The notes beneath the pieces were generated by a model. The model saw only the letters and a program-made list of their open reading frames with translations. It made no database searches and had not been told where the DNA came from. This document shows, piece by piece, positions 5,081-28,842 of a DNA stretch of 32,000 bases. Each line of letters begins with the position of its first letter. The first letter of the stretch is position 1. The DNA is from Ferroglobus placidus DSM 10642 (GTDB taxonomy: Archaea > Halobacteriota > Archaeoglobi > Archaeoglobales > Archaeoglobaceae): assembly GCF_000025505.1 (NCBI RefSeq), contig NC_013849.1:90001-122000 (forward strand), written 5' to 3'. A program made the position numbers and the translations under genes.

Positions 5081-5110
5081 CTTTTTATTAACAACCTCTC
5101 TTCTCTCTTC

Positions 5111-9521: not shown

Positions 9522-10408
9522 TCTACCACCTCACACAGGATAGCCATCCTAACCGGAACTCCGTAAAAAGCCTGCTTATAATAAACAGCATGCTTCGTCT
9601 TATCAACATCGAAAGTTATCTCATCAACCCTCGGCAGAGGATGCATGATTATCAGATCTTCTTTGGCGTTCTCCAAAATTTTGGAAGTTATCACGTAGCT
9701 TCCCGCAACTTTTCTGTATTCTTCCTCGTCTGGAAATCTTTCCTTCTGAATTCTCGTAACGTAAATCGCGTCTACCTCAGAAATAATGTCCTCAAGGGCA
9801 ACTCTCTCTCCGCCAACTTCCTCAACAAGTTCTTCGGGAAGCATGAGAGTGTCTGGGCACACGTAGTAGATTTTCGCGTTGTAGAGCTTCAAAGCTTTCA
9901 CTAAGGAATGCACGGTCCTCGAGTACTTCAGATCTCCCACAAGGGCAATTTTCACGTTCTCGAGCTTCGCTTCTCTTCTAAGGGTGAAGAGATCGAGCAA
10001 TGTCTGTGTAGGATGCTGTCCGGCACCATCCCCGGCATTTATAACCGGAACGCTGCTGTTTTCGGCAGCAAACTTTGCAGCTCCTTCTAAGCTGTGCCTT
10101 ATAACTATGACATCCGCGTAACCGCTTATAACTCTTATAGTGTCAGCCAGATTCTCCCCTTTGGCTATGCTGCTCGCCTCTTGGGATGTTAGGTTCACCA
10201 CTTCTCCTCCGAGCCTTTTCATCGCAACCTCAAAGCTCATTCTCGTTCTCGTTGATGGCTCGAAAAAGAGATTCGCGAGAATTTTGCCTCTCATGATCTC
10301 CATTCTTTTTTTACCCTCTGCAACTGGGATAAGATACTCCGCGAGATTCAGAATTCGTTCAATATCGGATTTTGATAGGTCTTCGATCGAAATTAGATGC
10401 TTCATCAA
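9509..10408 (-). CDS. pyrB: Aspartate carbamoyltransferase catalytic chain PyrB
   Basis: 299 aa with the carbamoyl-phosphate motif FFEPSTRTR, plus HPTQ and HPLPRV motifs. Confidence 0.95.
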   Translation of the reverse strand: MMKHLISIEDLSKSDIERILNLAEYLIPVAEGKKRMEIMRGKILANLFFEPSTRTRMSFEVAMKRLGGEVVNLTSQEASSIAKGENLADTIRVISGYADVIVIRHSLEGAAKFAAENSSVPVINAGDGAGQHPTQTLLDLFTLRREAKLENVKIALVGDLKYSRTVHSLVKALKLYNAKIYYVCPDTLMLPEELVEEVGGERVALEDIISEVDAIYVTRIQKERFPDEEEYRKVAGSYVITSKILENAKEDLIIMHPLPRVDEITFDVDKTKHAVYYKQAFYGVPVRMAILCEVVEWSN

Positions 10409-10565: not shown

Positions 10566-11087
10566 ATGAAGGCTCCGGTTAGGGTGACGATCGCCCTCGA
10601 TAAAGATACGGTAGAAATGCTGAAAAATTTAAGAAAAAAGCTCGATCAGTCGCAAAGCGAGATAATTAGAAACGCTTTAAAATTCTACCACTCCCTTCAG
10701 GATTACGATCTTGAAAAGATCAAGATTTACGTTGAGATGTTGAGTGAAGGAGAACATGTTATTCTCGACATCGATCACTGGATAGCTTTCTTGAAATTCA
10801 TTGAATCGCATCCGAAAAAAGATGACTTCTGGGAATTTCACAGAAAAGTGGCGAAAAGTCATGCTGAACAGTTCAAAGATATGAGTTTCGAGGAAATTCT
10901 GAGAAGACTCGAAGCCTGCAACTTCTTTAGACTGAATAAAACTTCCGAAAAAGAGTACACTCTAATATTTGGAAATGAAGAAACAAAATTCTTTGTGAAA
11001 ACTTTTTTGGAGGAGATTTTCGGAGAAATTAATGTAAAAGTGAGAATTGGGGAAGATCTTGCGAAGCTCAGAATATCCATCGAATGA
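10566..11087 (+). CDS. Ribbon-helix-helix (CopG/Arc/MetJ-type) transcriptional regulator with a C-terminal domain of unknown function
   Basis: The N-terminus VRVTIALDKDTVEMLKNLRKKLDQSQSEIIRNALKFY fits the beta-strand/helix/helix pattern of RHH DNA-binding domains. Total length is 173 aa. Confidence 0.65.
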   Translation: MKAPVRVTIALDKDTVEMLKNLRKKLDQSQSEIIRNALKFYHSLQDYDLEKIKIYVEMLSEGEHVILDIDHWIAFLKFIESHPKKDDFWEFHRKVAKSHAEQFKDMSFEEILRRLEACNFFRLNKTSEKEYTLIFGNEETKFFVKTFLEEIFGEINVKVRIGEDLAKLRISIE

Positions 11088-11093
11088 AAAACA

Positions 11094-11099
11094 TTTATA
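11094..11099 (+). promoter_or_regulatory. TATA-box-like TTTATA about 27 nt upstream of the modB ATG (probable leaderless promoter)
   Basis: TTTATA at 11094-11099 and ATG at 11124. There is no Shine-Dalgarno-like purine run between them. Confidence 0.35.
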
Positions 11100-11123
11100 G
11101 CGTTCAGCCGATTACAACTTCCG

Positions 11124-11855
11124 ATGAGATCCCAGAGTTTACTGTATCTTTCCCTCGCGATACTTTTTCTCTTCTACGTACTTCCACTGTTATTTGCGCT
11201 TTTCAAACTCGATTTGAGTAAAATTTTCGTCGAGTTCGACGAAGTTGCGAGAGCAATATTCCTCAGCGTTACGACGGCAACTTTCTCCACTTTCATTTCT
11301 CTTTTCATTGGTGTTCCCTCCGCATACATCTTATCGAGAAGAGAGTTTCCCGGAAAAAGCTTTGTCGAAACTTTTTTGGACGTTCCGGTGGTAATTCCTC
11401 CTGTTGCCCTCGGTACGCTTTTTTTGGTACTGTTCTCGGAAACTCAGGCTTTTAGCGGAATTCTCTTCACGCCCTACGCAATTATCGTTGCCCAGCTTGC
11501 GGTTGTAACGGCTATAATTCTAAGGTTGATGAAAACCGTGTTCGATCAGATAGACGTTTCTTACGATTACGTAGCAAGATCCCTCGGCTACACTCCAGCT
11601 GAAGTTTTCCTTAAAGTTGATTTGCCTATGGCGAAAAACGGAATAATCTCTTCAGCAATTCTCGCATGGACGAGAGCTGCCGGAGAGTTTGGAGCGACGA
11701 TAGTTCTTGCCGGAGCATCTAAAAACGTTGAAACTTTACCGATATCCATATACCTCAAGCTTTCTGTAGCTGATATTAGCGGAGCTTTAATTTCGGTGTT
11801 CGTCCTCGTTGGGATAGGTATTGCTGCCGTAACTGCTATAAAGAGGCTGGGCTGA
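11124..11855 (+). CDS. modB: Molybdate/tungstate ABC transporter permease
   Basis: 243-aa protein with about 6 TM segments. It has an EAA-loop-like segment (ARSLGYTPAEVFLKVDLPMAKNG) typical of MetI-fold permeases. It is adjacent to a ModC-like ATPase and convergent with a ModA-like binding protein. Confidence 0.75.
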   Translation: MRSQSLLYLSLAILFLFYVLPLLFALFKLDLSKIFVEFDEVARAIFLSVTTATFSTFISLFIGVPSAYILSRREFPGKSFVETFLDVPVVIPPVALGTLFLVLFSETQAFSGILFTPYAIIVAQLAVVTAIILRLMKTVFDQIDVSYDYVARSLGYTPAEVFLKVDLPMAKNGIISSAILAWTRAAGEFGATIVLAGASKNVETLPISIYLKLSVADISGALISVFVLVGIGIAAVTAIKRLG

Positions 11856-12896
11856 ATGCTGAAGCTTGAGAAAATCTCGGCAAGGAAGGGAAAATTCGAG
11901 ATAAGAGATGTATCTTTTCAGGTAGAGGAGGGTGAAGTTCTCGCGGTTATAGGACCTTCCGGAAGCGGAAAAACGACGTTAATTGAAACGATAGTCGGTG
12001 TAGTTCGCCCCATCTCTGGTAGAATATTTTTAAAGGGAAAAGACGTCACTAATCTCCCTCCGGAAAAGAGGAAAATAGCTTACGTCCCTCAAAATCTCTG
12101 CGTTTATCCCTTCATGAGCGTTGAGGAAAACATAAGGTTTGGCGGAAGAAACATCAGCTTCGAAGAAGTGAGAAGAATTGCGAGAATGCTAAGAATTGAG
12201 CACTTGCTCGACAGAGAAGCTAAATCTTTGAGCGGTGGTGAGCAGCAAAGAGTTGCGATAGCAAGAGCTCTGGCAGCAAATCCGGAGGTTATTGCTTTAG
12301 ACGAGGCTTTTAGAGGTCTCGACATCTCAACTAAAGAAGGGGTGCTCTCCGAATTTAAGGAAGTCCAAGAGAATGAAAGGTTATCCGTTATCCTCGTAAC
12401 TCACGACTTCGAAGAGGCTTACGCTCTTGCCGACAAAATTTGTGTTATGAACGAGGGAAGAATTTTGCAGCTTGGAGACAAAGAGGATGTCTTTTTCAAT
12501 CCGAAAAACGAGTTCGTGGCTGAATTTTTAGGATATTCGAACGTTTTCGAAGGCTACGCTAACGGAAACGTCATCGAAACGGATCTCGGAATAATAAAAA
12601 CTTTTGAGCAACACACCGGAAAAGTGAAGGTTTACGTCCATCCGAGGGACGTGATGGTGGTAAGAGAAGGAAAACCCCTCAGGAGGGGAATTGAGGAGAA
12701 CATTTTCGAAGGAGTTTTGAAGGAGATTATTGAGAAGCCCAACAGCTCTTTAATACTTTTCGACGTTAATGGGGTGACGATTAAAGCTGAACTGCCAAAC
12801 TACGTTGTCGAAAGGTTAAGGCTGAAGGAGTTTTTGAATAAAAAGCCCGTCAGAATCTCTTTAAAAACGGGGAGGATTATCGTGATTTCTAAGTAA
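11856..12896 (+). CDS. modC: Molybdate/tungstate ABC transporter ATP-binding protein with C-terminal TOBE/Mop-like regulatory domain
   Basis: It has Walker A (GPSGSGKTT), the signature LSGGEQQRVAIARAL, and Walker B (IALDEA). About 110 extra C-terminal residues are consistent with a TOBE domain. The start directly follows the modB stop. Confidence 0.8.
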   Translation: MLKLEKISARKGKFEIRDVSFQVEEGEVLAVIGPSGSGKTTLIETIVGVVRPISGRIFLKGKDVTNLPPEKRKIAYVPQNLCVYPFMSVEENIRFGGRNISFEEVRRIARMLRIEHLLDREAKSLSGGEQQRVAIARALAANPEVIALDEAFRGLDISTKEGVLSEFKEVQENERLSVILVTHDFEEAYALADKICVMNEGRILQLGDKEDVFFNPKNEFVAEFLGYSNVFEGYANGNVIETDLGIIKTFEQHTGKVKVYVHPRDVMVVREGKPLRRGIEENIFEGVLKEIIEKPNSSLILFDVNGVTIKAELPNYVVERLRLKEFLNKKPVRISLKTGRIIVISK

Positions 12897-13715
12897 TTAG
12901 AGAGACTTCCATTCTTCCGGAAGCTCGAATTTTCCTCCGATTTTGGCTTTCGGGGCTATTTTCCTAACTTCCTCAATTTCAGTCAGATATCCCATTTCTT
13001 TGTAGATTCTTTTGTTTGAATAAACGAAGTTCAGGAAAGAAAGAGATTTCTCAAAATTTTTCGTGAATTTCATCACTGCTATGGGGATGTAAGCAACTCT
13101 CGGAATCTGTTCAGGTTTCGGGAATATCACTTTCAGATTTGGACTCCAGTCGTCAAAGACGTCCCAGCCGATTACCGCATCAACCGCTCCAGCTTCTATA
13201 ATAGAAGCGGTGTCGGAGCAGCTTTTTGTGAGAGTGACTACGTTCTTCTTAACGTCAAGCCCGTTGTACTCGAAAAGTTCTACAGCGTACAACCCAACGC
13301 AAACAGTGTTGGGATTTGCTATCGCAATTCTTATTCCGTCTTTCTCCAAATCTTCAAGCTTGGATATCTTCTTGGGGTTATCTTTTCTGACAACTATTAC
13401 TGGAATTAAGTAAGCGAGAATTTTTTCCGTTTCCTCGTAAACGGCTCCTTTCTCCTTTGCAAGCTCCATGAAATCGTTGGACCCTGGCAAATATACGTCT
13501 CCTTTTTTGGCTATTATAGCTTGAGTTAAAACATATCCAGACCCTCCGTAGATCGCTTTGACTTTTTTGCCGTATAACTCGATTATTTTCTCCAGCGGCG
13601 GGAGATTCGCTGATCCGGCGTAAACCAAAAGTTCGCTTTCCAAAGAAAAGGCTGAAACTCCGAGCAACGAAAAAGCTCCTACCGCCGACAGCTTTAAGAA
13701 ATCCCTCCTCCTCAT
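12897..13715 (-). CDS. modA: Molybdate/tungstate-binding solute receptor (ModA-like) with twin-arginine-type signal
   Basis: 272 aa. The N-terminus is MRRRDFLKLSAVGAFSLLG. The body resembles ModA-type periplasmic binding proteins (GGSGYVLTQAI...ANPNTVCVG...). Its start overlaps the chaperone stop (ATGA, 13712-13715). Confidence 0.75.
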   Translation of the reverse strand: MRRRDFLKLSAVGAFSLLGVSAFSLESELLVYAGSANLPPLEKIIELYGKKVKAIYGGSGYVLTQAIIAKKGDVYLPGSNDFMELAKEKGAVYEETEKILAYLIPVIVVRKDNPKKISKLEDLEKDGIRIAIANPNTVCVGLYAVELFEYNGLDVKKNVVTLTKSCSDTASIIEAGAVDAVIGWDVFDDWSPNLKVIFPKPEQIPRVAYIPIAVMKFTKNFEKSLSFLNFVYSNKRIYKEMGYLTEIEEVRKIAPKAKIGGKFELPEEWKSL

Positions 13716-14194
13716 TCTTTTCCCTCGAAAATTTTCTCAAGCTCTTCGGCAGCTAAATCGTATACTTTCGAGTGCTTTTTAACTCTTTCTGTAAACTTGA
13801 AAATCCACTCTTTCATTCTATTGAAAAATTCCTGATCGTCCGTTAAAGCTAAAAATTCGAGCTCAACGCTCACGTGATCTGGAGGTTCGCTTAAATAAGT
13901 ATATTTTAACCCCCTACTTTCGTAAATTTCCCTAACCTCGACTGTAGATTCTCCGTAAACGAGTCCCTCTCTGTAAAACGACTCGTAGGGATGACATTTG
14001 AGGGTTGGGTAGGAGCTTACGAAGAGTCTCGTATACTCCGTCTGGAGGTCTTTGAGACTCATCTTTGTTAATTCTTCGACGACATGGGAGTATTCGGGAA
14101 TTTCTTCCACAAGTTTTCTCATTTCATTTATAGTTTCTTCAGTTGGGAAGGAAAAAATGAGGGAAAAGAGTTTGAATATCTTTTGCCTCTTCAT
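13712..14194 (-). CDS. TorD/NarJ/DmsD-family molybdoenzyme maturation chaperone
   Basis: 160 aa with family hallmarks: EYTRLFV (E-x3-LF) and EPPDHVSVELEFL (EPxDH...L). Confidence 0.75.
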   Translation of the reverse strand: MKRQKIFKLFSLIFSFPTEETINEMRKLVEEIPEYSHVVEELTKMSLKDLQTEYTRLFVSSYPTLKCHPYESFYREGLVYGESTVEVREIYESRGLKYTYLSEPPDHVSVELEFLALTDDQEFFNRMKEWIFKFTERVKKHSKVYDLAAEELEKIFEGKE

Positions 14195-14195
14195 T

Positions 14196-15473
14196 TTATG
14201 CAGCCTCTGCTTTTTCGACCGGCAGCGCTTTTAGTAGGAAGAGAAGGATGAAGGAAATTACCGCAAAGACTCCGATCGTTATCGTTATCTCTACTGGAGA
14301 GGGCACGTAGTTCCAGTAGTCCACGAAAATTGGCTCTGGGTTCATCAGAGTTCCTCTCACCTCTCCTACCGCAATAGGATAAGCCCATTCGAAACTTTCG
14401 TAGCCGAGGATTACGGCAATTCTCGTCGGAATCAGGTTGTAGGCTGGAGGCATAAGCAAATATCTATGTGCCAATATTCCTAGATTTATTATCACGCTTC
14501 CGAAAACCAAGCCGGAGACCGAAGAATACCTCGTTGCCAAGATTATTATGCCAAGTATCAACAGGATCACTTCTGCTGCATGGATAGCCAAGTAGTCTCT
14601 GAAAACGAGCATCAGTGCATCGTACTCTTTCCCAGCCTCCCACCACCACCTCACGAGGAAGTCGTTGTAGTACATGAAAAGCAATCCAGCTGCTGATGCG
14701 GCTGAAACCTTGGCAAGCAATCTGTAAGTTTGTGCGAGTTCTTCTTTAAATCCGTAAACTATCAGCGAAGCCAAAATAACCACTGCAGGACCAGCTGTTA
14801 GCGCTGCAGCGATAAAAGTTGGAGCAAGTAATCCGCCGTACCACCAAGGTCTTGAAAGCTGAGTAGCTAAGACCCAAGCGGTGACCGTGTGGATGAGTAT
14901 GGCGAACGGCAAAGCTATTGGTGCGAGTATTTTTGCTTGTCTTTCCGAAGCTTCTCTTAGCCTTGCAAGCTCGTCAGCTTTCACGTCTCTTTTCATTATC
15001 GTTTTTCCGAATATCGTTATTCCTCTCTCAGCTATCCTCGGTCTGAGCTGGACGTAGGTGTAGATTGCTGAAAGGACAGCATAGGTTGAGAGAACGAGAA
15101 AGTCCCAAGGAAGCAGAGATTTGGGGTTGGGGTAGATAATGATGTTGAGGATTCTATCCGGTCTACCCAAGTCAGGCAAGACCATGAGCATTGCAGCGAC
15201 CGCAAATATAAATGCTGTTAGAGAAGCCACTGGCGCTATTGGTTTCAGCTGCTTGGCTCCGAAGATGTAGATTGCCGAAGATACGACAAGACCACCCGCT
15301 GCCGTACCGACGTAAAAAGCCCACATCGCTATGTAAAGACCCCAGCTGAACGGGTTTCTCATGTTTGTCACTATTAACCCCTTCTGGATCTGGTAGATCC
15401 AGGCGGCGAAGCCAATTATTGCAAGTATTCCGAGTATGAGCATCGCAAGATTATACTTCCTCATCAAACTCAC
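14196..15473 (-). CDS. NrfD/PsrC-type integral membrane quinol-interacting subunit of the molybdoenzyme
   Basis: 425-aa protein, highly hydrophobic with roughly 10 TM segments. Its position after the Fe-S subunit, with a 4-nt overlap, matches CISM NrfD-type anchors. Confidence 0.75.
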   Translation of the reverse strand: MSLMRKYNLAMLILGILAIIGFAAWIYQIQKGLIVTNMRNPFSWGLYIAMWAFYVGTAAGGLVVSSAIYIFGAKQLKPIAPVASLTAFIFAVAAMLMVLPDLGRPDRILNIIIYPNPKSLLPWDFLVLSTYAVLSAIYTYVQLRPRIAERGITIFGKTIMKRDVKADELARLREASERQAKILAPIALPFAILIHTVTAWVLATQLSRPWWYGGLLAPTFIAAALTAGPAVVILASLIVYGFKEELAQTYRLLAKVSAASAAGLLFMYYNDFLVRWWWEAGKEYDALMLVFRDYLAIHAAEVILLILGIIILATRYSSVSGLVFGSVIINLGILAHRYLLMPPAYNLIPTRIAVILGYESFEWAYPIAVGEVRGTLMNPEPIFVDYWNYVPSPVEITITIGVFAVISFILLFLLKALPVEKAEAA

Positions 15474-16225
15474 CCCTTAACCTCCTCCTTATAATCAACT
15501 TCTCCCCTCTTCGTTTTTCTGGCTGGAGGAATGTAGAAAACTTTAGGCTCAGTTCCGAGCTCCTCAAGCAATCTGAAAACTGATCTATCCCTCAAGATCT
15601 TCGAAATCTCGCTGTTCGGATCGTCTAAATCCCCGAAAACTCTCGCGTTGCCGGGACATCCCCTAACGCATGCGGGAGCAATTCCTTTGTCAACGAACTG
15701 AACGCAGAACGTGCACTTCTCCACCACTCCTCTCGGTCTCGTTTTGGTGTAAACAAGCCTGCCATCCTTGGTTCTGTGATCGAAAGGATATCCATGTTTG
15801 TAATCTTTGACAGCATACCAGTTCTCTTCAAACCCCGCTCTTTCGAAAGCTTGTTTGAAGTTCTCATCGGCATCCTGCCAGTTGAACTGCCTCACTCCGT
15901 AAGGGCAGGCTGTGATGCAGTATCTGCAACCTATGCACCTCTCGAAGTCCACCAAAACCAAGCCGTCCTCTCTCTTCCACGTCGCCCCTACTGGACAGAC
16001 TTTGACGCATGGAGCGTTTTCGCAGTGCATACACGGCACTGGAAGAAAAACTTCGGAAAGGTTTGGATATTCTCCCACTGGCACCATGTGCTCTTTCGAG
16101 CCTACTGTTTCAACTCTCTGCCACCATGTTCCCGGAGGGACGCTGTTCACCATTTTGCATATTACGGCACAGCTTCTGCAGCCTATACACCTGTTAAGGT
16201 CTATAACCATGCCGTACCTAACCAT
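15470..16225 (-). CDS. Four-cluster [4Fe-4S] electron-transfer subunit (PsrB/NrfC/DmsB-like)
   Basis: 251 aa with four Cys groups: CIGCRSCAVIC, CMHCENAPCVKVCP, CIGCRYCITACP and CTFCVQFVDKGIAPACVRGCP. A GGTGAG ribosome-binding site lies in the 10-nt gap after the catalytic-subunit gene. Confidence 0.9.
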   Translation of the reverse strand: MVRYGMVIDLNRCIGCRSCAVICKMVNSVPPGTWWQRVETVGSKEHMVPVGEYPNLSEVFLPVPCMHCENAPCVKVCPVGATWKREDGLVLVDFERCIGCRYCITACPYGVRQFNWQDADENFKQAFERAGFEENWYAVKDYKHGYPFDHRTKDGRLVYTKTRPRGVVEKCTFCVQFVDKGIAPACVRGCPGNARVFGDLDDPNSEISKILRDRSVFRLLEELGTEPKVFYIPPARKTKRGEVDYKEEVKG

Positions 16226-16235
16226 TTAACTCACC

Positions 16236-18932
16236 TCAAACCTTCCTGACATCGCAAGCTGTTTCGTTCCAGCACGTTGTCGGCTCCCATATTCCGGGAA
16301 CGAAGTAAGCTAAGTGAGTCGCTTTAACCCACGGGAACGTTAGCGTGTTATACGAAGCCCCTCTCAGATACCTGCTCCACCATCCCTGCTCGAAGATTAT
16401 GACTCGCGGATGGATTCCTGGATCGAGAACGGCATATCCGTAGACTTTTCCTCTGTCGTTGTAAACCTCCACGAGATCCCCCTCTTTGATGCCTTTCTCC
16501 TTCGCAGTTTCGGGATTCATCCATACTCTCGGTCTGAAGTCCTGTAACTCAAGCATCGTCAGGTTGTTGCTGTGGGTTGAGTGAACTCTGTAGAGAGCGT
16601 TTCTCGTCACGTAAGCGAATTTGTACTTGTTCTTAGCTTCTGGATTGACTTTGTACTCTGTGTCGACGAAGGGGTCTTTGTGAACTGGCAAAGTTTCTCC
16701 GAAGTCTATGAAAACGTCCTCTTCTTTGTAGAACTCAATTCTTCCACTCTTCACGAATCTGGCTGTCTTGGGGAGGGGCGCTGGATAAGATGGCGGAGGG
16801 AACGGCTTTTTCTCTTGAATCTGCTCCCAGAAGGGAATCTGTCTGTTGTTCGGGGCTGGAAGGTTTAGTCTAACTGCACCTTCTTTAAGAAGCCTTTCGA
16901 GGGTTATGTTCTTCGTGAACTCGTGCTTTCCGAGCATGAGCTCAGCAGCTTTCAGCGAAGCTTCGTTCGCTATTTCTCTAGCGAGCTTCAAGCTCCAGGT
17001 TCCGTTCTTTCTCGCTTCCTCTTCTCTTCTGAACAGCTCTGGATCTGGATAGAACTCTTCTATCTGTGCCTTAAGCTCTGGGTCGTCCCATCTTTCCACG
17101 AGTCTCTTCGCTATTTCTTTGAAAATCCATATCTCCGGCATGCACTCAAATAGCGGCTCTATGGCAGGTTGTTGAAGCTGCACGTAAGGGTGAAGTATCG
17201 TGGCGGTAAGTTCGTATTTCTCGTACCAAGCAACTCCTGGCAATACAACATCAGCCCACTTCGTTGATGTCGTCTGCTGGAAGTCTATGGCAACTATTAG
17301 TTCGAGCTCACCACTTTTAGCCATCTCTTTAAGCCTGTTAGCCATGTTATGCTGATCAAATGGGTTGTTCCATCCGAAAACGAAAGCTTTAACGTCGTTC
17401 TTCGGGTAAGGAGTTTCTCTGTTGTACTTCCTGAACTCTTCACTCTGCCTGTATTCTTTGTTTAACCAGAGCAAGAACGTAACCCAGTTTGGCTTTCTTC
17501 CCTTAAACGACCACCACATTCCAAGGGGCCATCTTATTTTGAACTGTCCGGCGTATGTGGAAATTCCAGCACCGGGCTTTCCTATGTTTCCGGTTAGAGC
17601 CACTATTAACGAGAGAGCTCTTCCCTTTAAGTCTCCGTGGAACCACTGGTAGTTGCTCGCTCCGTAGATAATGTGGAGGGGCTTTACCGTTCCCATCTCT
17701 CTGCCGAGTCTCTTAATTATCTCCACATACTCCTCCTTGCTTCTACCCGGTGGAGTTATGATCTCTGCAACTTTTTCCGGAGTGTAGTCTTTGTTCACGA
17801 GCTCTTTAACAAGCTGGAATACCGGTTTGACCTTAACTTTTCTCCCGTCAACGAGCTCTACTTCAAATTCACCCTCTAAAGCTGGTTCGAAATCTCTTTC
17901 GAGCGTCTCAGGATTCACTATTTTGAATCTCTTCTCCTTGACATCGTAAACAACGAAGAGATCTCTGTATTCCGGAATCTTCTCTTTCATTTTCTCAGCT
18001 TCGTCCTTAAGCTCTTTAATCTCGTAAGCTCTCAGTCTCTTCTGGTTATCAAGCCTCACAAGGAGCGGCAAATCCGTGTAGGTCTTTACGAAATCCTCGT
18101 CGTAGAGCTTCTCGTTTATTATGACGTTCACTATTCCGAGAGCTAAAGCAGCATCGGTAGATGGATTGATCTGAATCCACTCATCAGCTTTAGCGGCTGT
18201 TGGAGTGAAGTTCATATCTACCATGATTACTTTCGCTCCTCTCTCTTTGGCTATGCTCAGGAACTTTGCGTCTGGCAGCCTTGTAACGAGAATGTTTGAG
18301 CCGAAAATTGCTATGTACCTTGAATTCACCCACTCAAGCGACTCAAATTCTTCGGTTTGCACTCCGAAAGTTTGAGACCAGAAAGCCGGTAGATCTCCGT
18401 TCATCGTGTATCCGTGAAGAACGCTCCATCCAAACATCGAAGCAAGCCTTATTGCAGCTCCTTTGTGCACGTATCCGGTTCCTGGCACTTGTATCGATAA
18501 GGCAACGCTTTCCGGTCCGTATTTTTTCATAACTTCGGCAAGTTTGTCAGCCACGTAGTCCAAAGCTTCGTCCCAGCTAACGGCTTTAAACTTCCCTTCC
18601 CCTCTCTCCCCAACTCTTATGAGCGGTTTTTTGAGTCTGTCAGGTCCGTAGATGAGGTTGAGCATCGACTGCCCTTTCAAGCAACCTCTCGGATTGTATT
18701 CAGCCTCTGGATAATCCGCTGCCTGAATGAGCTGCACTATTCTCCCCTTGTAAACGTAGGCGTTGTAGGCACAAGCACCGGTGCAGTTCGGAGAACAAGT
18801 TGATCTGACGACTTTCAGCTCTTCGTCTCTTTTCTCCGCTGAAGTTGCAAGTTCGAAGTACTTGCTGCCGATTCCCGCTGATATCGCTGTTAAAGCGCAT
18901 ATTTTCACAAAATCCCTTCTCGTTACGTTCAT
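16236..18932 (-). CDS. Tat-exported bis-PGD molybdo/tungsto-enzyme catalytic subunit of the Nar-like (type II DMSO reductase) clade; candidate outward-facing nitrate/(per)chlorate reductase
   Basis: 898 aa with the Tat signal MNVTRRDFVKICALTA. The FS0 motif is C-SPN-C-TGA-C...PRGC (C-x3-C-x3-C-x(n)-C). Long stretches align by eye with E. coli NarG, including GDLPAFW...GSN (the NarG CDLPPAS Asp-ligand region) and VLPGVAWYEKYE (NarG ILPTATWYEKDD). Confidence 0.85.
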   Translation of the reverse strand: MNVTRRDFVKICALTAISAGIGSKYFELATSAEKRDEELKVVRSTCSPNCTGACAYNAYVYKGRIVQLIQAADYPEAEYNPRGCLKGQSMLNLIYGPDRLKKPLIRVGERGEGKFKAVSWDEALDYVADKLAEVMKKYGPESVALSIQVPGTGYVHKGAAIRLASMFGWSVLHGYTMNGDLPAFWSQTFGVQTEEFESLEWVNSRYIAIFGSNILVTRLPDAKFLSIAKERGAKVIMVDMNFTPTAAKADEWIQINPSTDAALALGIVNVIINEKLYDEDFVKTYTDLPLLVRLDNQKRLRAYEIKELKDEAEKMKEKIPEYRDLFVVYDVKEKRFKIVNPETLERDFEPALEGEFEVELVDGRKVKVKPVFQLVKELVNKDYTPEKVAEIITPPGRSKEEYVEIIKRLGREMGTVKPLHIIYGASNYQWFHGDLKGRALSLIVALTGNIGKPGAGISTYAGQFKIRWPLGMWWSFKGRKPNWVTFLLWLNKEYRQSEEFRKYNRETPYPKNDVKAFVFGWNNPFDQHNMANRLKEMAKSGELELIVAIDFQQTTSTKWADVVLPGVAWYEKYELTATILHPYVQLQQPAIEPLFECMPEIWIFKEIAKRLVERWDDPELKAQIEEFYPDPELFRREEEARKNGTWSLKLAREIANEASLKAAELMLGKHEFTKNITLERLLKEGAVRLNLPAPNNRQIPFWEQIQEKKPFPPPSYPAPLPKTARFVKSGRIEFYKEEDVFIDFGETLPVHKDPFVDTEYKVNPEAKNKYKFAYVTRNALYRVHSTHSNNLTMLELQDFRPRVWMNPETAKEKGIKEGDLVEVYNDRGKVYGYAVLDPGIHPRVIIFEQGWWSRYLRGASYNTLTFPWVKATHLAYFVPGIWEPTTCWNETACDVRKV

Positions 18933-18953: not shown

Positions 18954-18969
18954 CCCTAAACTTTTAGGG
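18954..18969. promoter_or_regulatory. Perfect palindrome CCCTAAA-CT-TTTAGGG, 21 nt upstream of the molybdoenzyme start codon; third copy of the CTAA-N4-TTAG box
   Basis: Read directly. The 12-nt core at 18956-18967 (CTAAACTTTTAG) matches the nos-region boxes (CTAAAATGTTAG) at 10 of 12 positions. Confidence 0.5.
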
Positions 18970-19171: not shown

Positions 19172-19564
19172 TTAGTCTGTTACGACTAAAACCCCTCTCA
19201 TTATCCAGTGTCCAAGTCCGGAGTTTGGATAAGGTTCTCCGCAGTAAATGTTACACCTTATTTCAAATGTACCGGTTTTGTTTGGAACAAACGTAACCTC
19301 TTTCCACTTCCCCGGCTCGACTATTTCGTTTATGCCGAAAGCAGCGATGTACAATCCGTGAGTGACATCGTCACTCGTGAATCTCAGCGTAACTTTTTCT
19401 CCTTTTTTCACTACAATTTTATTTGGCACGAACATCCACTGCTTTGCGTGCAGCTCTATTACGTTCTCTTCCTTAGCTTGGGATTTGTAGTACATTGGTC
19501 CTCCTATTATCGCCAGGACTCCGATTATTAGAAGGAGTAATGCTATGATGTCTCCGATCCTCAT
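19172..19564 (-). CDS. Membrane-anchored CuA-type cupredoxin (COX2-like domain) with expanded copper loop
   Basis: The true start is ATG 19562-19564 (MRIGDIIALLLLIIGVLAIIGG...). GGAGGTG lies 9 nt upstream, and there is an ATGA overlap with the upstream gene's stop. Ligand pattern: H69...C104-x3-C108-x10-H119-x2-M122. The longer ORF-track model (to 19888) overlaps the polyferredoxin gene. Confidence 0.75.
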   Translation of the reverse strand: MRIGDIIALLLLIIGVLAIIGGPMYYKSQAKEENVIELHAKQWMFVPNKIVVKKGEKVTLRFTSDDVTHGLYIAAFGINEIVEPGKWKEVTFVPNKTGTFEIRCNIYCGEPYPNSGLGHWIMRGVLVVTD

Positions 19565-21108
19565 AAGAACACACCTCCTCCGAGCCAGACGTGTATAACT
19601 ATCAAAGCGTAGCCCAATACCGCTGCCACTATTGGTATCGCTGCTCTTATCGCAGCTTTCTTGTCGTCGAACATTCTCAACGATATTTCGTGAGCTGCCC
19701 TCGTTGAGAAAACGACTCCAGCAACTATGAACGCCATCTGTATGTACGGAATTGCCCATGTGAAGTAGGGCTGCCATTTGAGATGAGCAGTCCCGAATAT
19801 GTCCCAGCCTAAGTTGAAGGGGTCTGAGAGAATTCTCAACACGTAGGAACCGTTGACGAGCAGGATGTAGATTGAGAAAGCTCCCCAAGCCATGAGGCTT
19901 ATTGGAACGAGGGCGTAGGAGAAGTTTATGAACACTCTCTTGAAGGACACATCCTTTCCGGAGAGCATCTTTGAGAGGTATGCGAAGGCTGCGAACAATG
20001 CTGGGGCTATGACGAGGGTTGAAACCAAGATTATCCCTAAGAATGTCAGGTAGTTCTGCAGCGAGAACGCTTCGATGAGTAGATTCGTCTTCTTGTCGAA
20101 GGGCACGTGAATTGCTTTACCGATTAACGGAGCAACTTTTCCGCCAAGAACGTTGGAGACTTCTCTCAACCATGGGTGTGCTCCTGCAAACACTATTGCA
20201 TAGAGGATAGCCAACGTAGCCATTATGAACGTCTTGTAAGCTTCGTCAAGCCCTCTCTTCTTTATTCCGTACCATGGATCCACGAATAGATCTTCTCCTC
20301 CTATTCTGAAGTTGACAGCTATGTTGTCGAAGGGACAAGTCTTGATACATTCGGTACACAAGCCGCAGTAGGCGTTTCTGTTTAAGTTCCCCGGATACTC
20401 GAACCACGGGCATCCATATCCTTTATCGTTTCCTCTTATACAATCCTTGTAGCCAACGTGCTTTATGCATGTCTCTCTGTTCTTCACTCTAAGCTCGAGG
20501 GTTGAAAACATCGAATACAGTCCGATGAATCCTGAAACCGGGCAGATGTACCTGCAGAACGCTCTTCCTCTGAATATCAGAAATACTATTATTGGTAGTA
20601 TTATGACAAGAATTATTAGCAAAATTCCTGAAACCCACGGTCTCGTGACGAGAATTCCTATGAAGCTTGAGACCATTAGGAATGAGGCGTTCTGTATCCA
20701 GATGTTGTCGAACTTCTTTGGCCATCTTTTTCCAAGTCCTATGGGTTTGTGTCTAACTCCGACAAACGTTCCTCGCTGAATCCACTCTCCCAACGCCGGA
20801 ATAGGGCAGACTTGACACCATATCCTTCCTCCGAAGGGGACGAGAACGAGCATCAGCGCTGCCCACCAAACAATCCACATTATCAGAATCGCCAAGTTGC
20901 TGTTACCCACTGGACTTCCGAAAAAGGCTGCATACATCAAAGCGACGAAGATTAAGAAGTTCGGGAATATCGCTATGAACTGATACGCTCGCAATTTGAA
21001 TAGCCATCGGATTATCGGAATTCTGAGCAGGTCGTATCTAAAGAAGTACTTCGCCTCTTCCTTAGCTGTTGCATCCTTAACCTCTTCACCAACTTCCGCC
21101 AACTTCAC
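19561..21108 (-). CDS. NosR/NapH-family integral membrane iron-sulfur protein (polyferredoxin) with extra C-terminal multi-TM domain
   Basis: 515 aa. CxxCP/Cx3CP motifs follow TM helices (WCQVCPIPALGEW, FCRYICPVSGF). It also has a ferredoxin motif (CGLCTECIKTCP) and a partial Cys group (C-x9-C-x9-CP). It lacks the N-terminal FMN-binding domain of NosR. The GTG start at 21108 comes immediately after AGGAGGTGA. Confidence 0.7.
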   Translation of the reverse strand: MKLAEVGEEVKDATAKEEAKYFFRYDLLRIPIIRWLFKLRAYQFIAIFPNFLIFVALMYAAFFGSPVGNSNLAILIMWIVWWAALMLVLVPFGGRIWCQVCPIPALGEWIQRGTFVGVRHKPIGLGKRWPKKFDNIWIQNASFLMVSSFIGILVTRPWVSGILLIILVIILPIIVFLIFRGRAFCRYICPVSGFIGLYSMFSTLELRVKNRETCIKHVGYKDCIRGNDKGYGCPWFEYPGNLNRNAYCGLCTECIKTCPFDNIAVNFRIGGEDLFVDPWYGIKKRGLDEAYKTFIMATLAILYAIVFAGAHPWLREVSNVLGGKVAPLIGKAIHVPFDKKTNLLIEAFSLQNYLTFLGIILVSTLVIAPALFAAFAYLSKMLSGKDVSFKRVFINFSYALVPISLMAWGAFSIYILLVNGSYVLRILSDPFNLGWDIFGTAHLKWQPYFTWAIPYIQMAFIVAGVVFSTRAAHEISLRMFDDKKAAIRAAIPIVAAVLGYALIVIHVWLGGGVFL

Positions 21109-21567
21109 TCACCTCCTTGCTATATAATATCCCGTCACAGCTATTCCGAGAATTATTGCAAAAAGAGAGACTCCTCTCTCTGGATTGTTCGGTTTCACTA
21201 TCAGCTTCCCTGTCATGAATGGATGGTAGGGTCCGCAGGTAACGTTGCACCTGTACGTGAAAACTCCCGGTTTATCTGCTACGAACTTTATCACTCTCTC
21301 CCTCGGCCAACCTTCTTTTGTTATTATCGCTGTACCTATGTCGTAACCTTCAATGAAAAGACCGTGGGATACATCAGCAGATTTCAATCGTATGATAACT
21401 GTGTCTCCTTGGTTTACCTCTATCACTGAAGGTTCGTACTCCCATTGTTTTGCAATTACCGTGAACTCCTTTGTCGTACCTTTTGGACTCGTGTTCTGAG
21501 CACTGGATATAGTCAGCACTGAAATTCCCAGCACCACCAGCGCAAGCAGAATTACTCCTGCTCTCAT
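21109..21567 (-). CDS. Exported, C-terminally membrane-anchored CuA-type cupredoxin (COX2-like domain)
   Basis: 152 aa with the signal MRAGVILLALVVLGISVLTISSA and the C-terminal TM segment GVSLFAIILGIAVTGYYIARR. It has a canonical CuA pattern: H68 (SHGLFIEG)...C107-x3-C111-x3-H115-x2-M118 (YRCNVTCGPYHPFM). By eye it aligns with ba3-oxidase subunit II. Confidence 0.8.
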   Translation of the reverse strand: MRAGVILLALVVLGISVLTISSAQNTSPKGTTKEFTVIAKQWEYEPSVIEVNQGDTVIIRLKSADVSHGLFIEGYDIGTAIITKEGWPRERVIKFVADKPGVFTYRCNVTCGPYHPFMTGKLIVKPNNPERGVSLFAIILGIAVTGYYIARR

Positions 21568-21626
21568 CTCAACACCACCGTTTATTTTCTTACAATTTTG
21601 CTCTAATATCTGTAAAAAACTAACAC

Positions 21627-21638
21627 CTAAAATGTTAG
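21627..21638. promoter_or_regulatory. CTAAAATGTTAG box, 7 nt from a TTTTTTA element oriented toward the cupredoxin operon
   Basis: The core is at 21627-21638. The A6 run at 21614-21619 is T6 on the minus strand. A GGTGGTG ribosome-binding site and ATG 21567 lie downstream on the minus strand. Confidence 0.5.
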
Positions 21639-21885
21639 GAGTCTTAGGCGATCTAAAATTTTTTGATATTATAATAATGTTATATCCTTTAGAGTATAGC
21701 TGAAGTCAATGTTGTTGATACTCTAATCTGAAAAATATTGGTGTCATCTTTTTTAATTCTTGTTAATCGATGCTACTAAGAATTTTTAGCTCTTTTTAGC
21801 ATAACAATCATTATGACGATTTTTGAAGTAGCGGGAATAGATTAATTTTTTAGGGAGCGCAACCAAAATTGCTGGTTTTCAACCA

Positions 21886-21897
21886 CTAAAATGTTAG
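21886..21897. promoter_or_regulatory. CTAAAATGTTAG box, 7 nt upstream of a TTTTTTAT element (probable TATA box) of the nosZ promoter
   Basis: The core is at 21886-21897 and T6A at 21905-21911. The GGTGA ribosome-binding site is at 21948-21952 and ATG at 21958. The 13-mer CTAAAATGTTAGG is identical to the copy at 21627-21639. Confidence 0.5.
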
Positions 21898-21945
21898 GGT
21901 ATCATTTTTTATTGTTACATTCGTTAATTCAATATATAACTGGTT

Positions 21946-24039
21946 TTGGTGATGGGAATGGCGGAGGAGAAGAATGCGAAAAAGAACAACAAGAGAAACA
22001 ATAAAAACGGGGAGACTAAATTAACAAGAAGAGAATTTCTTAGCTTCGGAGGAGGTTTTATCGCTGGATTTGCCGTTGGAGCTGGAATTTCGAGGCTTGG
22101 TGGAGGAGGAGCACCAGCAGCTCCAGCCTCTTTTGCTGAAATAATGGAGCAGAGAGGGTTGACGCAGCAGGATGCTATTGCCGCTTTAAAAACCTACACT
22201 CCCGGAGGAAAGTACGACGAGTTCATAATGTTTGCCTCTGGAGGACATTCTGGGCAGGTGCTCGTAATCGGAGTTCCGAGCATGAGATTGTACAAAGTAA
22301 TAGCCGTATTCACCCCAGAGCCTTGGCAGGGATACGGATATGGACTGAAGGAAACCCATGAAGTTCTTAAAGGAGGGTATAACGGAATTCGCCCATTGAG
22401 CTGGGGAGACACTCATCATCCTGAAATCAGCAGAACCAATGCTGAGTTTGACGGAGAATGGCTGTTTATTAACGATAAAGCAAACGGCAGAGCTGCTGTT
22501 ATAAGCCTCAAGGACTTCGAGACGAAACAAATAGTAAAAGTTCCGAACACTCAAACAGTCCACGGAGGGTGCTTTGCCACTCCAAATACTGAATACGTTG
22601 CAATTGTCAGCCAATATGCAACCCCATGGGATCCTGAAAAAGGAGGATACATCCCCGGAGAAACGTATGTTGAGTTGACTGAGGAGAACTACAAGAAGTA
22701 CTTCAGAGGAACTTACACGTTTTTGGCTTTCGACAGAAAGAGGGGAAGATTCGACCTATCAAAGAGCTTCCAGATAGAGCTTCCTCCGTACACGCAGGAT
22801 CTTGTAGCTGTAGGATGGGGTCCGAGCGATGGTTTGGCTTTCTGCAACTCTTTCAACACCGAGTTGGCTGTTGGAGGTGTCTTAAAAGGAAAACCTCCAC
22901 TTGAGATTGGAATGTCCCAGAACGATTTCGACTATCTTCACGTAATTCTGTGGAAGAAGGCTGAGCAGTACGTTAAGGAAGGAGGAGGAGAAGTGATAAA
23001 CGGGATAAGAGTAATAAGGTTGAAGGAGGCTGTTAAGGAGGGGCTGATTTACTTTGTTCCCGAACCAAAAAGCCCCCACGGATGTGATATAACGCCGAAC
23101 GGAGATTACGTTTGTGTCAGTGGAAAGCTCGATCCCGTTGTGACAGTCTATAGCGTGGAGAAGATAAAAAGGGCTATCGAAGAGAAGAAGTTCGAAAAGA
23201 AAGATCCCTACGGTGTTCCAGTTTTGAAGTTTGACGAAGTTGTTGAGGCTCAGATAGAGGTTGGTTTAGGTCCTCTCCACACAGAATTCGACGATAAAGG
23301 CTATGCTTACACAAGCCTCTTCATAGACAACGCTGTAGCAAGATGGAAGCTTGGTCCACCCTACAACGAAGATGGATGGAAAGTTGTTGAAAGAATTCCC
23401 ATAAACTACAACGTTGGACATCTGGCAACTCCGGAGAGTAACTCTCCGACGCCAAAAGGAAAGTATCTCGTTTCCCTAAACAAGTGGTCGATCGAAAGAT
23501 TCCCGCTTGTCGGTCCACTGCATCCGCAGAACTTCCAGTTAATTGACATAAGTGGGGAGAGAATGCAGCTCCTTTACGACATGCCCATAGGACTTGGTGA
23601 ACCTCACTATGCGAAGATAATCAGCATCGAGAAACTTAAGCCACTCGATGTTTACCCAGCTGGAACTGACCCGCTTACCTTCCAGCCACATCCGAAGGCA
23701 ATACAGCAGGGACAGGAGAGAATTGAGAGAAAGCAGGAGAACGGAAAGTGGGTTACTGAGATTTATGCTACATTAATCAGAAGTACCATAACTCCTGACA
23801 TAATGAAAGCCAAAGTGGGAGACATCGTGAGAATTTATCTGACGAACGTTGAATACACGAGAGATGCAACACATGGATTCTGTATCGCAGAGTACAACAT
23901 AAACGCGAGTCTTGAGCCGGGAGAGACTGGAACGATAGAGTTCGTTGCGGACAAGCCAGGAGTTTATGCGATCTACTGTACGGAGTTCTGTTCACCACTC
24001 CACCTGGAAATGGCCGGTTGGTTAGTAATTGAACCATAA
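21946..24039 (+). CDS. nosZ: Nitrous-oxide reductase NosZ (Tat-type signal)
   Basis: It has the twin-arginine motif LTRREFLSF (RR codons at 22027-22032) and the CuZ-region DTHHP (22408-22422). The C-terminal CuA site is HGFCIAEY...C-TEF-C-SPL-H-LE-M (23977-24012). The likely true start is ATG 21958, preceded by GGTGA; the ORF-track start is TTG 21946. Confidence 0.95.
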   Translation: MVMGMAEEKNAKKNNKRNNKNGETKLTRREFLSFGGGFIAGFAVGAGISRLGGGGAPAAPASFAEIMEQRGLTQQDAIAALKTYTPGGKYDEFIMFASGGHSGQVLVIGVPSMRLYKVIAVFTPEPWQGYGYGLKETHEVLKGGYNGIRPLSWGDTHHPEISRTNAEFDGEWLFINDKANGRAAVISLKDFETKQIVKVPNTQTVHGGCFATPNTEYVAIVSQYATPWDPEKGGYIPGETYVELTEENYKKYFRGTYTFLAFDRKRGRFDLSKSFQIELPPYTQDLVAVGWGPSDGLAFCNSFNTELAVGGVLKGKPPLEIGMSQNDFDYLHVILWKKAEQYVKEGGGEVINGIRVIRLKEAVKEGLIYFVPEPKSPHGCDITPNGDYVCVSGKLDPVVTVYSVEKIKRAIEEKKFEKKDPYGVPVLKFDEVVEAQIEVGLGPLHTEFDDKGYAYTSLFIDNAVARWKLGPPYNEDGWKVVERIPINYNVGHLATPESNSPTPKGKYLVSLNKWSIERFPLVGPLHPQNFQLIDISGERMQLLYDMPIGLGEPHYAKIISIEKLKPLDVYPAGTDPLTFQPHPKAIQQGQERIERKQENGKWVTEIYATLIRSTITPDIMKAKVGDIVRIYLTNVEYTRDATHGFCIAEYNINASLEPGETGTIEFVADKPGVYAIYCTEFCSPLHLEMAGWLVIEP

Positions 24040-24090
24040 AATCTTTAATTTTTTAATTTTTTATAATTTTATTTAAAGGGGTGAATATAG
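24040..24090 (+). terminator. T-tract-rich intercistronic spacer (two T6 runs) followed by a strong ribosome-binding site; possible partial terminator/attenuator between nosZ and the accessory genes
   Basis: T6 runs are at 24049-24054 and 24057-24062. GGGGTGA at 24078-24084 lies 6 nt before the nosL ATG. Oligo-T tracts are the known archaeal termination signal. Confidence 0.3.
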
Positions 24091-24594: not shown

Positions 24595-24603
24595 GGTGGT
24601 AAA

Positions 24604-28170: not shown

Positions 28171-28842
28171 ATGCCGGGGATGAAGGAAGTTGTGATCAAG
28201 ATGAAAATGACCCCCCACACTTGGGTTAGAAAGATAATATCAGAGGATCCGCTTCAAGTGAGAATTCTCGACTGCAGATCTATTCAAGGAAAAGATGGTG
28301 TGATAGAGCTATTTGAAATTAGAACGGAAGGTAAGAATGTTGATAAGATAATCGAGAAGCTGAAGAAATGCAGCGAAATTTACGACTTGGAAATTCTCGA
28401 TAAAGATTACAGGAGAGGAGAAATCGTAGGGACGCTCAAAACAACTCATTGTGACGTTTGCAAGCATTTCACACACTTACCGGACTGCTTTCTCGGTTCT
28501 GCAGATTACGAGCTGAAAGATGGCTACGTTTACTGGAAACTACTTTTAACTAACGAAGATTTGAAGCTTTTACTCAAAAAGTTCGAAGAGATGGGAGTGG
28601 AGATAGAAATAGAGGAGATGTCAAGCTATGAACATCATGAAGACTCTCTGACGGTGAAGCAGGAGCAGATAGTCAAGCTCGCTTGGGAAATGGGATACTT
28701 CGACACTCCAAGGAAGATAAGTCTCAAGAAACTATCAGAAATTCTTGGCATATCCACACCAACCCTTTCGGAAATTCTGAGGAGGGGTTTGAGAAAAATT
28801 GTGAAGGACTATTTTGAGAAGGTAAGTAGGAGGAAGAGGTAA
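28171..28842 (+). CDS. HTH_10 (Bat/NarO/DmsR-type) transcriptional regulator with N-terminal Cys/His cluster
   Basis: The C-terminal LTVKQEQIVKLAWEMGYFDTPRKISLKKLSEILGISTPTLSEILRRGLRKIV is the HTH_10 pattern. The N-domain has H93-C94-x2-C97-x-H99-x2-H102-x3-C106 (28447-28488). It starts 6 nt after nosY. Confidence 0.8.
   Translation: MPGMKEVVIKMKMTPHTWVRKIISEDPLQVRILDCRSIQGKDGVIELFEIRTEGKNVDKIIEKLKKCSEIYDLEILDKDYRRGEIVGTLKTTHCDVCKHFTHLPDCFLGSADYELKDGYVYWKLLLTNEDLKLLLKKFEEMGVEIEIEEMSSYEHHEDSLTVKQEQIVKLAWEMGYFDTPRKISLKKLSEILGISTPTLSEILRRGLRKIVKDYFEKVSRRKR

Follow-up and report, generated by a model that had tools for sequence, protein, structure and literature searches.

A probable outward-facing Mo/W oxyanion reductase of the AF0173-AF0176 family in Ferroglobus placidus and its candidate operator shared with nos genes

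Over 25 years the AF0176 family has been annotated in three conflicting ways, as nitrate reductase, perchlorate reductase and alkene hydroxylase, and the question is which of these, if any, describes its member in the archaeon Ferroglobus placidus DSM 10642. We examined a 32,000-nt window of this genome (all coordinates refer to the window; Table 1) in which five close-set open reading frames (ORFs) on the minus strand, at 12897-18932, encode a catalytic alpha subunit, a beta subunit, a membrane subunit, a chaperone and a solute-binding protein. An initial annotation of the locus had described a chimeric respiratory enzyme, with a NarG-type catalytic subunit, a Psr-type iron-sulfur subunit and an NrfD-type anchor, and had favoured nitrate or another N-oxyanion as substrate. 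We read the operon as the F. placidus member of the AF0173-AF0176 family, a membrane-bound Mo or W oxyanion reductase with its active site predicted to lie outside the cytoplasmic membrane, and we put the probability of this reading at roughly 0.6. Its relatives occur widely in thermophilic archaea, Nitrospirota, Deltaproteobacteria and Firmicutes, and the family is relevant to how (per)chlorate can be reduced when chlorite dismutase is absent and to energy conservation by outward-facing Nar-type enzymes. Three handles on it are provided here: a conserved candidate operator that ties the enzyme to nos genes in a cultured denitrifying archaeon for which no nitrite reductase is known, a gate position that is aromatic as in PcrA, and a 10-helix ActC/DsrP-like anchor combined with a true Mo/W-bis(pyranopterin guanine dinucleotide) (Mo/W-bisPGD) subunit.

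Exact sequence matches to F. placidus DSM 10642 proteins were obtained for the alpha subunit (ADC64312.1), the beta subunit (ADC64311.1) and a helix-turn-helix (HTH) regulator of the HTH_10 family (ADC64322.1), and the operon is therefore Ferp_0121-0124. The ORFs were as initially described, with an 898-aa alpha subunit exported by the twin-arginine translocation (Tat) pathway, a 251-aa beta subunit with four Cys4 groups and an NrfD-type anchor of about 10 transmembrane (TM) helices. The start codon of the anchor is uncertain (GTG at 15473, or an ATG three codons downstream, Met4, at 15464), and its 425-aa sequence had no exact entry in the protein database. Since the gene junctions of the enzyme operon measure only -4 to +10 nt, the five genes on the minus strand form one operon. 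Between it and the cupredoxin gene upstream lie 239 bp of AT-rich DNA containing oligo-T runs, indicating that the operon has its own promoter. The start of the ModA-like gene overlaps the chaperone stop by 4 nt, which makes it the last gene of the operon, and its product scored 50 bits against the NCBIfam modA model, under the cut-off of 62.5. A Mo/W ATP-binding cassette (ABC) transporter is divided between the strands at 10566-13715, with a ribbon-helix-helix (RHH, CopG) regulator, a permease and a WtpC-like ATPase on the plus strand and the ModA-like binding protein on the minus strand. The closest model of the convergent ATPase was the tungstate transporter WtpC (300 bits, under the cut-off of 440).

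The alpha subunit has a twin-arginine signal (TRRDFVK), the Pfam domains Molybdop_Fe4S4, Molybdopterin and Molydop_binding, and FS0 cysteines arranged as C46-x3-C50-x3-C54...C84. Its best NCBIfam model was TIGR03479 (type II dimethyl sulfoxide (DMSO) reductase alpha subunit), matched in one full-length stretch at 536 bits; other models scored lower, among them EbdA (306 bits), DmsA/YnfE (304), NarG (288, cut-off 1084), PhsA (229, cut-off 694), ArrA (90, cut-off 1600) and TtrA (64, cut-off 1750), the last four all under their curated cut-offs. Among solved structures in the PDB, PcrA was the best match (391 bits), ahead of EbdA (279), NarG (248), NxrA (208) and PsrA (201). The NarG-like blocks on which the initial annotation relied were each recovered by BLASTP against a true NarG (representative P0223, 1476 bits on TIGR01580), including VVRSTCSPNCTGAC/VVRSTHGVNCTGSC, NGDLPAFWSQTFGVQTE/YADLPPASPQTFGDQTD, IIYGASNYQWFHGD/IIMGAGVNHYFHAD and LPGVAWYEKYEL/FPAATWYEKNDL (alpha/NarG), and the Asp ligand it had proposed also stood, as D180 aligned with the PcrA ligand D170, the NarG Asp and EbdA. 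In a set of 119 alpha family members (56-96% identity), the NGDLP segment, the twin-arginine pair and the FS0 cysteines were present in 119/119 and the ligand Asp was invariant; together with these, N49, Y175, Q429 and D434 were invariant or nearly so.

One position of the substrate gate separates the family from NarG. Position 464 is F464 in F. placidus and Phe or Tyr in all 119 family members, whereas the NarG representative has Glu at the matching position of the BLASTP alignment. According to published descriptions, the equivalent residue is Trp461 in PcrA, where it forms part of an aromatic gate giving high perchlorate affinity, and Glu in bacterial and haloarchaeal NarG. The PcrA gate residues Phe164/Tyr165/Trp461 correspond to G174/Y175/F464 in F. 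placidus; across the family, position 174 is occupied by Ala, Gly or Pro. Judged from these alignments, the active site appears neither NarG-like nor wholly PcrA-like, and its gate residue 464 seems to lean towards PcrA.

A neighbour-joining tree (691 columns, 50 bootstraps) was calculated from 143 aligned sequences: the query, members of its family and those representatives that were full-length in the top 150 matches from 1.84 billion proteins. The alpha family was monophyletic (94%), with one sister lineage (P0122/P0220, 100%), and 89 Dms/Psr-like representatives formed a separate clade split from it at 100%, a placement outside the Psr/Dms-like group that agrees with the NarG-type description given initially. 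NarG-like and other type II sequences grouped at 80%. In the five Dms/Psr-like representatives that were scanned, the DmsA/YnfE and type II models scored about equally; for the distant Dms/Psr-like sequences the ligand column of an initial MAFFT alignment of the whole family was not reliable, and we make no claim on their ligands. In this tree the alpha family appears as a deep lineage of its own rather than a branch within NarG or Pcr.

The four cysteine groups of the beta subunit are all complete (C13/16/19/23, C65/68/73/77, C97/100/103/107 and C171/174/186/190), which implies four [4Fe-4S] clusters, and the beta subunit has no signal peptide of its own. Group III reads CIGCRYC, compared with CIGCKKC in ArrB and CIACGAC in PsrB; in EbdB (CKGHRHC) and PcrB (CKGAQAC) the second Cys is missing and the cluster there is therefore a 3Fe-4S cluster, and the long insertion of EbdB and PcrB is absent from the F. 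placidus subunit. Against the PDB it scored highest with ArrB (179 bits) and PsrB (177.5), followed by EbdB (128), PcrB (120) and NarH (82), and among curated models it exceeded the cut-off for DsrO (212 against 200), with ArrB (202), TtrB (181) and NrfC (179) next. The type II beta model TIGR03478 gave 144 bits, under the cut-off of 481, and NarH 82, with a cut-off of 524. By its motifs and scores the predicted beta subunit is thus of the Psr/Arr/NrfC/DsrO type and not of the type II beta kind, which has three 4Fe-4S clusters and one 3Fe-4S cluster. The initial statement that the partners are not NarH/NarI-like, with no heme-b gamma subunit, was borne out by the NarH score and by an anchor of the NrfD family; no NarI or heme-b gamma subunit gene was found at the enzyme operon.

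These partner subunits bear on two further readings of the enzyme. Reduction of another oxyanion or of a sulfur compound (selenate, arsenate, tetrathionate or polysulfide) would suit a beta subunit whose nearest PDB relatives are ArrB and PsrB and whose nearest curated models are DsrO, ArrB and TtrB, and Psr, Ttr and Arr typically have an anchor of the NrfD type. However, the alpha subunit falls far under the PhsA, ArrA and TtrA cut-offs, is split at 100% from the Dms/Psr-like representatives and has an Asp ligand, where the Psr/Arr/Ttr group uses Cys, and we consider such a substrate very improbable. An enzyme that works oxidatively, hydroxylating alkenes or alkyl-aromatics in the manner of ethylbenzene dehydrogenase and delivering the electrons to the quinone pool, would match the fact that F. 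placidus oxidises aromatic compounds, and EbdA is the second-best solved relative of the alpha subunit. This reading follows a published proposal that AF0173-0176 is an alkene hydroxylase, an alkene-activating enzyme, by homology to an Aromatoleum enzyme. It has very little probability in our assessment, since PcrA scores above EbdA (391 against 279 bits), both the 3Fe-4S motif and the long insertion of EbdB are lacking, and there is no heme-b gamma subunit, the published description of a heme-b anchor being contradicted by the Pfam NrfD assignment.

That assignment scored 214 bits, and the anchor could be placed more narrowly within NrfD. Its best NCBIfam match was DsrP (154 bits, cut-off 350), then QrcD, HybB and HmcC, with TtrC at just 19 bits, and its PDB sequence matches were ActC subunits of alternative complex III only. 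An AlphaFold model built with 51 homologues (predicted local distance difference test (pLDDT) 85, predicted template modelling score (pTM) 0.86) had ten long helices, and a Foldseek search with this model matched ActC over its full length (template modelling score 0.76, E 2e-12), whereas PsrC was matched in its 8-helix core only (0.40, E 8e-4). The modelled anchor is therefore best described as a 10-helix ActC/DsrP-like protein and not an 8-helix PsrC-like one, so that the initial comparison with polysulfide and tetrathionate reductases holds for the beta subunit but is imprecise for the anchor. A published survey of the NrfD family found that its ten-helix members (QrcD, HybB, HmcC, DsrP as well as ActC) pair with non-standard "catalytic" subunits. 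The ten-helix anchor is paired here with a standard Mo/W-bisPGD subunit, a pairing unreported in that survey and a modest but real refinement.

The combination itself is not new. When all proteins of the window were compared by tblastn with the 22 genome loci that the alpha subunit had retrieved, plus a contig of a Ferroglobus sp. metagenome (L023), we found the order alpha-beta-NrfD in 19/19 loci that extend far enough (20/20 with the Ferroglobus contig), usually with the chaperone next, which was present in 12 related loci. These loci belong to Geoglobus, Archaeoglobus, Nitrospirota, Beta- and Deltaproteobacteria, Desulfosporosinus and Peptococcaceae and reach down to 49% identity, a distribution from which the module appears to be a self-contained unit in archaea and bacteria. 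No neighbour hinting at a substrate was broadly conserved beyond the four core genes in the related loci, and adjacency to nos was confined to Ferroglobus among the loci compared. The modular description given by the initial annotation was accurate, but the enzyme is a long-known, widespread family and not a new chimera. The operon has been listed in the literature as the F. placidus homologue of AF0173-AF0176 of Archaeoglobus fulgidus, a "hypothetical nitrate reductase" of unknown specificity, and other publications name Ferp_0124 as a relative of Af_0176, a putative periplasmic perchlorate-to-chlorite reductase of A. fulgidus. Both the Ferp_0121-0124 locus and its family are thus already known, and no new kind of system is described here. 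The link drawn in the initial annotation to an A. fulgidus operon implicated in (per)chlorate reduction was correct, the two alpha subunits being 79% identical and Ferp_0124 being treated as the AF0176 homologue in the literature.

Several neighbours were seen in subsets of these loci. FmdE-family genes adjoin the module in an Archaeoglobus locus (L006 7352-7930) and a Nitrospirota locus (L018), and in the latter a multi-haem cytochrome c gene lies upstream (FmdE/cytochrome region at L018 13215-13910 and 6170-7561). In Desulfosporosinus, a superoxide dismutase (Fe/Mn) gene directly follows the module in 5/5 loci (L011, L012, L017, L020 and L021) and hcp (hybrid-cluster protein, Prismane) lies no more than about 0.3 kb upstream in four, the fifth (L011) being without upstream DNA (for example, L012 6133-7776 and L011 5419-6123). 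These Desulfosporosinus neighbours hint at a reactive N- or Cl-oxide product.

One feature that sets the F. placidus locus apart is a palindrome, CTAA-N4-TTAG, common to the enzyme operon and the nos region. Four matches were found in the window against 0.77 expected, a number reached in 0/100 shuffles, and one of the four is an artefact: the match at 12889-12900 consists of stop codons belonging to a convergent gene pair and was dismissed. In the Ferroglobus metagenome contig, whose alpha subunit is 96% identical and whose synteny is that of the window, the other three are all intact within conserved promoter-proximal blocks (7025-7036, 7293-7304 and 9966-9977); the centre of the nosZ/cupredoxin spacer has diverged between the two, whereas the flanking palindrome copies are identical. 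The alpha-upstream copy is also conserved in locus L001. The shared operator inferred by the initial annotation is therefore a real and conserved element. It was absent from the Geoglobus, Archaeoglobus and bacterial loci scanned; in Geoglobus loci (L003 4411-5049 and L009 7180-7818) a divergent gene for a 212-aa winged-helix and PAS regulator directly upstream of alpha occupies the place that the palindrome has in Ferroglobus. A one-mismatch half-palindrome (CCCTAACTTTTTAT) lies at 5076-5088, 23-35 nt upstream of the start of a tatC gene (5111-5821) and at the same distance as the copy at alpha, but it has one good half-site only and may be due to chance.

The architecture of the palindrome, with 4-nt half-sites and a 4-nt spacer, matches that of the haloarchaeal denitrification motif CGAAYATDKTYG, which its published description associates with HTH regulators of the Bat/NarO type. 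An HTH_10 gene of that type, Ferp_0134, closes the nos cluster and has the same position in the Ferroglobus metagenome contig; its product has a Cys/His-rich N-terminal segment (THCDVCKHFTHLPDC), matched no NCBIfam model and is by analogy a candidate redox-sensing binder of the palindrome. Through this candidate operator the operon would belong to a lineage-specific anaerobic-respiration regulon, and its expression in F. placidus is probably tied to an anaerobic/denitrification regulon by the element it has in common with the nos genes. The copy at the enzyme operon lies 23-36 nt from the alpha ATG, but those at the two nos-region promoters lie directly upstream of T-rich boxes; because of this difference in placement, regulation of opposite sign is possible, and the sign of control at the alpha promoter may differ from that at the nos region. 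According to the same literature, haloarchaeal regulons of this kind also control DMSO-type reductases, so the operator does not identify a substrate.

The regulatory ties favour the idea of a dedicated second, outward-facing nitrate reductase (pNar) that is switched on with nitrous oxide reductase, in an organism known to respire nitrate: the palindrome recurs at the promoters of nosZ and of the cupredoxin operon and is retained in a second Ferroglobus genome, it resembles the haloarchaeal element in architecture, a Bat/NarO-type gene ends the nos cluster, and the ligand Asp and Asn49 are NarG-like. However, nitrate respiration in F. placidus is already explained by its published canonical Nar (Ferp_0311-0314) with an adjacent nitrate transporter, accompanied by NorBC and NosZ, and the orthologue is carried by A. 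fulgidus, Geoglobus ahangari and A. neptunius, which do not respire nitrate. Moreover, the gate is aromatic where NarG has Glu, nos adjacency is absent outside Ferroglobus, and the position of the operator at alpha differs from that at the nos promoters, with regulation possibly opposite in sign. We therefore regard a second nitrate reductase as a possible but doubtful explanation. The initial argument from nos adjacency and the shared operator to nitrate was sound as regards the operator; the step to nitrate was weak, because the operator signals an anaerobic-respiration regulon and no particular substrate, and it is countered by the canonical Nar, the relatives without nitrate respiration and the restriction of the adjacency to Ferroglobus.

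A further proposal is that the enzyme supplies the NO-forming nitrite reductase that F. placidus seems to lack; it would convert nitrite to NO on the outer face and feed NorBC and NosZ, as part of a NarO-like regulon with nos and conserving energy through the ActC-like anchor, and would be neither a nitrate nor a (per)chlorate reductase. If true, the DMSO reductase family would gain its first respiratory nitrite reductase. Some molybdoenzymes, NarG included, reduce nitrite to NO as a side reaction, and hcp, which stands upstream of the module in four Desulfosporosinus loci, with superoxide dismutase downstream in 5/5, is a nitrosative-stress gene. F. placidus is reported to form NO and N2O from nitrate, yet has neither NirS nor NirK, and the operator is common with nos. 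These points are wholly circumstantial, orthologues are common in non-denitrifiers, and we know of no member of the DMSO reductase family that serves as a dedicated nitrite reductase in respiration; this proposal seems to us improbable.

We therefore return to an oxyanion reductase of the AF0173-AF0176 family and consider how it would work. The NarJ/TorD-type chaperone would hold the alpha subunit during cofactor insertion, and the Tat pathway would then export it carrying the signal-less beta subunit; an active site facing outward, as initially proposed, fits the Tat signal. The alpha-beta pair would dock on the 10-helix NrfD-type anchor, where menaquinol would be oxidised, and we infer that electrons would pass from this quinol donor through the four [4Fe-4S] clusters of the beta subunit and FS0 to the Asp180-ligated Mo/W-bisPGD, at which the Mo/W centre would take an oxygen atom from the oxyanion. 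Chlorate/perchlorate and nitrate are the most likely substrates, and enzymes of this clade typically reduce chlorate, perchlorate and nitrate alike. Taking the whole family together, (per)chlorate is the sole substrate backed by in vivo evidence, from second-hand reports on A. fulgidus. That species is reported to grow on chlorate or perchlorate with thiosulfate or sulfide scavenging the chlorite. Nitrate is a plausible substrate in F. placidus through the regulon, but is not required because the canonical Nar is present. Our literature search found no F. placidus transcriptome covering Ferp_0124.

A number of observations weigh against this interpretation. The match of the alpha subunit to TIGR03479, at 536 bits, falls far under the curated cut-off of 984.75, and in the tree the order among the Asp-ligated lineages was supported at just 34% and 22%. 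The (per)chlorate-reducing role rests on the second-hand A. fulgidus reports, which derive from genomic and proteomic evidence, and the role in F. placidus is a prediction from it. A. neptunius has the cluster and is reported not to grow on nitrate, chlorate or perchlorate, and neither a chlorite dismutase nor a nitrate transporter, nor any other partner specific to one substrate, was found in the window or conserved near orthologues. Mo and W are moreover indistinguishable from the sequence, hence "Mo/W" throughout.

Table 1. Positions of the enzyme operon, the palindrome copies and the nos region within the 32,000-nt window
Feature	Position	Strand	Properties
Catalytic alpha subunit, Ferp_0124	16236..18932	-	898 aa; Tat signal, Mo/W-bisPGD, FS0, Asp180
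Beta subunit, Ferp_0123	15470..16225	-	251 aa; four Cys4 motifs
NrfD-family anchor, Ferp_0122	14196..15473	-	425 aa from GTG; heme-free, ~10 TM helices
NarJ/TorD-family maturation chaperone, Ferp_0121	13712..14194	-	160 aa; Pfam Nitrate_red_del 79 bits
ModA-like periplasmic binding protein	12897..13715	-	272 aa; RR-type signal; SBP_bac_11 130 bits
Palindrome copy 1, CCTAAACTTTTAGG	18955..18968		23-36 nt upstream of alpha ATG
Palindrome copy 2, CCTAAAATGTTAGG	21626..21639		upstream of cupredoxin/NapH-like/cupredoxin operon
Palindrome copy 3, ACTAAAATGTTAGG	21885..21898		upstream of nosZ
Cupredoxin operon	19172-21567	-	membrane-anchored cupredoxin, 515-aa NapH-like polyferredoxin membrane protein, second cupredoxin
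nos cluster, clade II (Sec-type)	21946-28164	+	nosZ, nosL, 193-aa gene of no assigned role, nosD, nosF, nosY
HTH_10 (Bat/NarO/DmsR-type) regulator, Ferp_0134	28171..28842	+	223 aa; Pfam HTH_10 69 bits

The nosZ gene of the adjacent cluster (21946-24039, plus strand) scored 786 bits against a cut-off of 625. It is Ferp_0128; the nos cluster was reported in the genome paper, and F. placidus has been described as ending denitrification at N2O. The cupredoxin operon, which is homologous to AF0142-0144 of A. fulgidus, probably conducts electrons to NosZ. Within it, the 238-aa ORF at 19172-19888 is over-extended, the real cupredoxin start being the ATG at 19564 (130 aa). Elsewhere in the window, the plus-strand stretch 1271-4387 has a gene for a 740-aa amino-acid permease and, after it, a 281-aa ORF whose match to that transporter family covers only the family's first two thirds; this ORF may be a truncated duplicate of the permease. 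An MtrH-family methyltransferase gene followed by a DUF2193 gene (685 bits), at 29555-31842 on the plus strand, is unrelated to the enzyme operon.

Compared to known systems, the beta subunit and anchor resemble the DsrOP and ActBC modules in that the former passes the DsrO cut-off and the latter has DsrP as its best curated and ActC as its best structural match. They differ from these modules in a DsrP score under the cut-off, a beta subunit without a signal peptide, and a setting with no dsrMKJ or act context. PsrABC and ArrAB(C) have in common with the F. placidus enzyme a heme-free NrfD-family anchor, and its four-[4Fe-4S] beta subunit is closest to ArrB and PsrB; the alpha subunit, however, falls among Asp-ligated lineages, and the 10-helix anchor, as modelled, superposes on ActC, not PsrC. 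With NarGHI and pNarGH the enzyme shares the FS0 block, the Asp ligand segment, several aligned cofactor-binding blocks and a chaperone of the NarJ family, and it would face outward, the orientation published for archaeal pNar. Relative to NarGHI it has an NrfD anchor in place of NarI, a Tat signal, an aromatic residue for the gate Glu, and Cys instead of His as the first FS0 ligand.

PcrAB of Azospira (PDB 4YDD) is the best solved relative (391 bits), and both enzymes are periplasmic, that of F. placidus by prediction. The equivalent residues in PcrA and the F. placidus alpha subunit are D170/D180, Asn35/Asn49, Lys76/Lys86 and Tyr165/Tyr175, and the Trp461 site is aromatic in both (F464); in contrast, PcrB has the 3Fe-4S motif CKGAQAC and a long insertion, and Phe164 is replaced by Gly/Ala and His426 by Gln429 in the AF0176 family. 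Pcr is soluble, with cytochrome partners and chlorite dismutase, whereas Pfam and NCBIfam scans found neither a PcrC-like cytochrome c gene nor a cld gene in the window. The closest known system remains AF0173-AF0176 of A. fulgidus, in which the alpha subunit (P0018) is 79% identical, the order alpha, beta, NrfD and chaperone is the same, both alpha subunits have a Tat signal, the NCBIfam profiles match and the TIGR03479 score is 525 bits against 536 in F. placidus. To this arrangement F. placidus adds three features that none of the Archaeoglobus and Geoglobus loci has: the ModA-like gene, the adjacency to nos and the palindrome.

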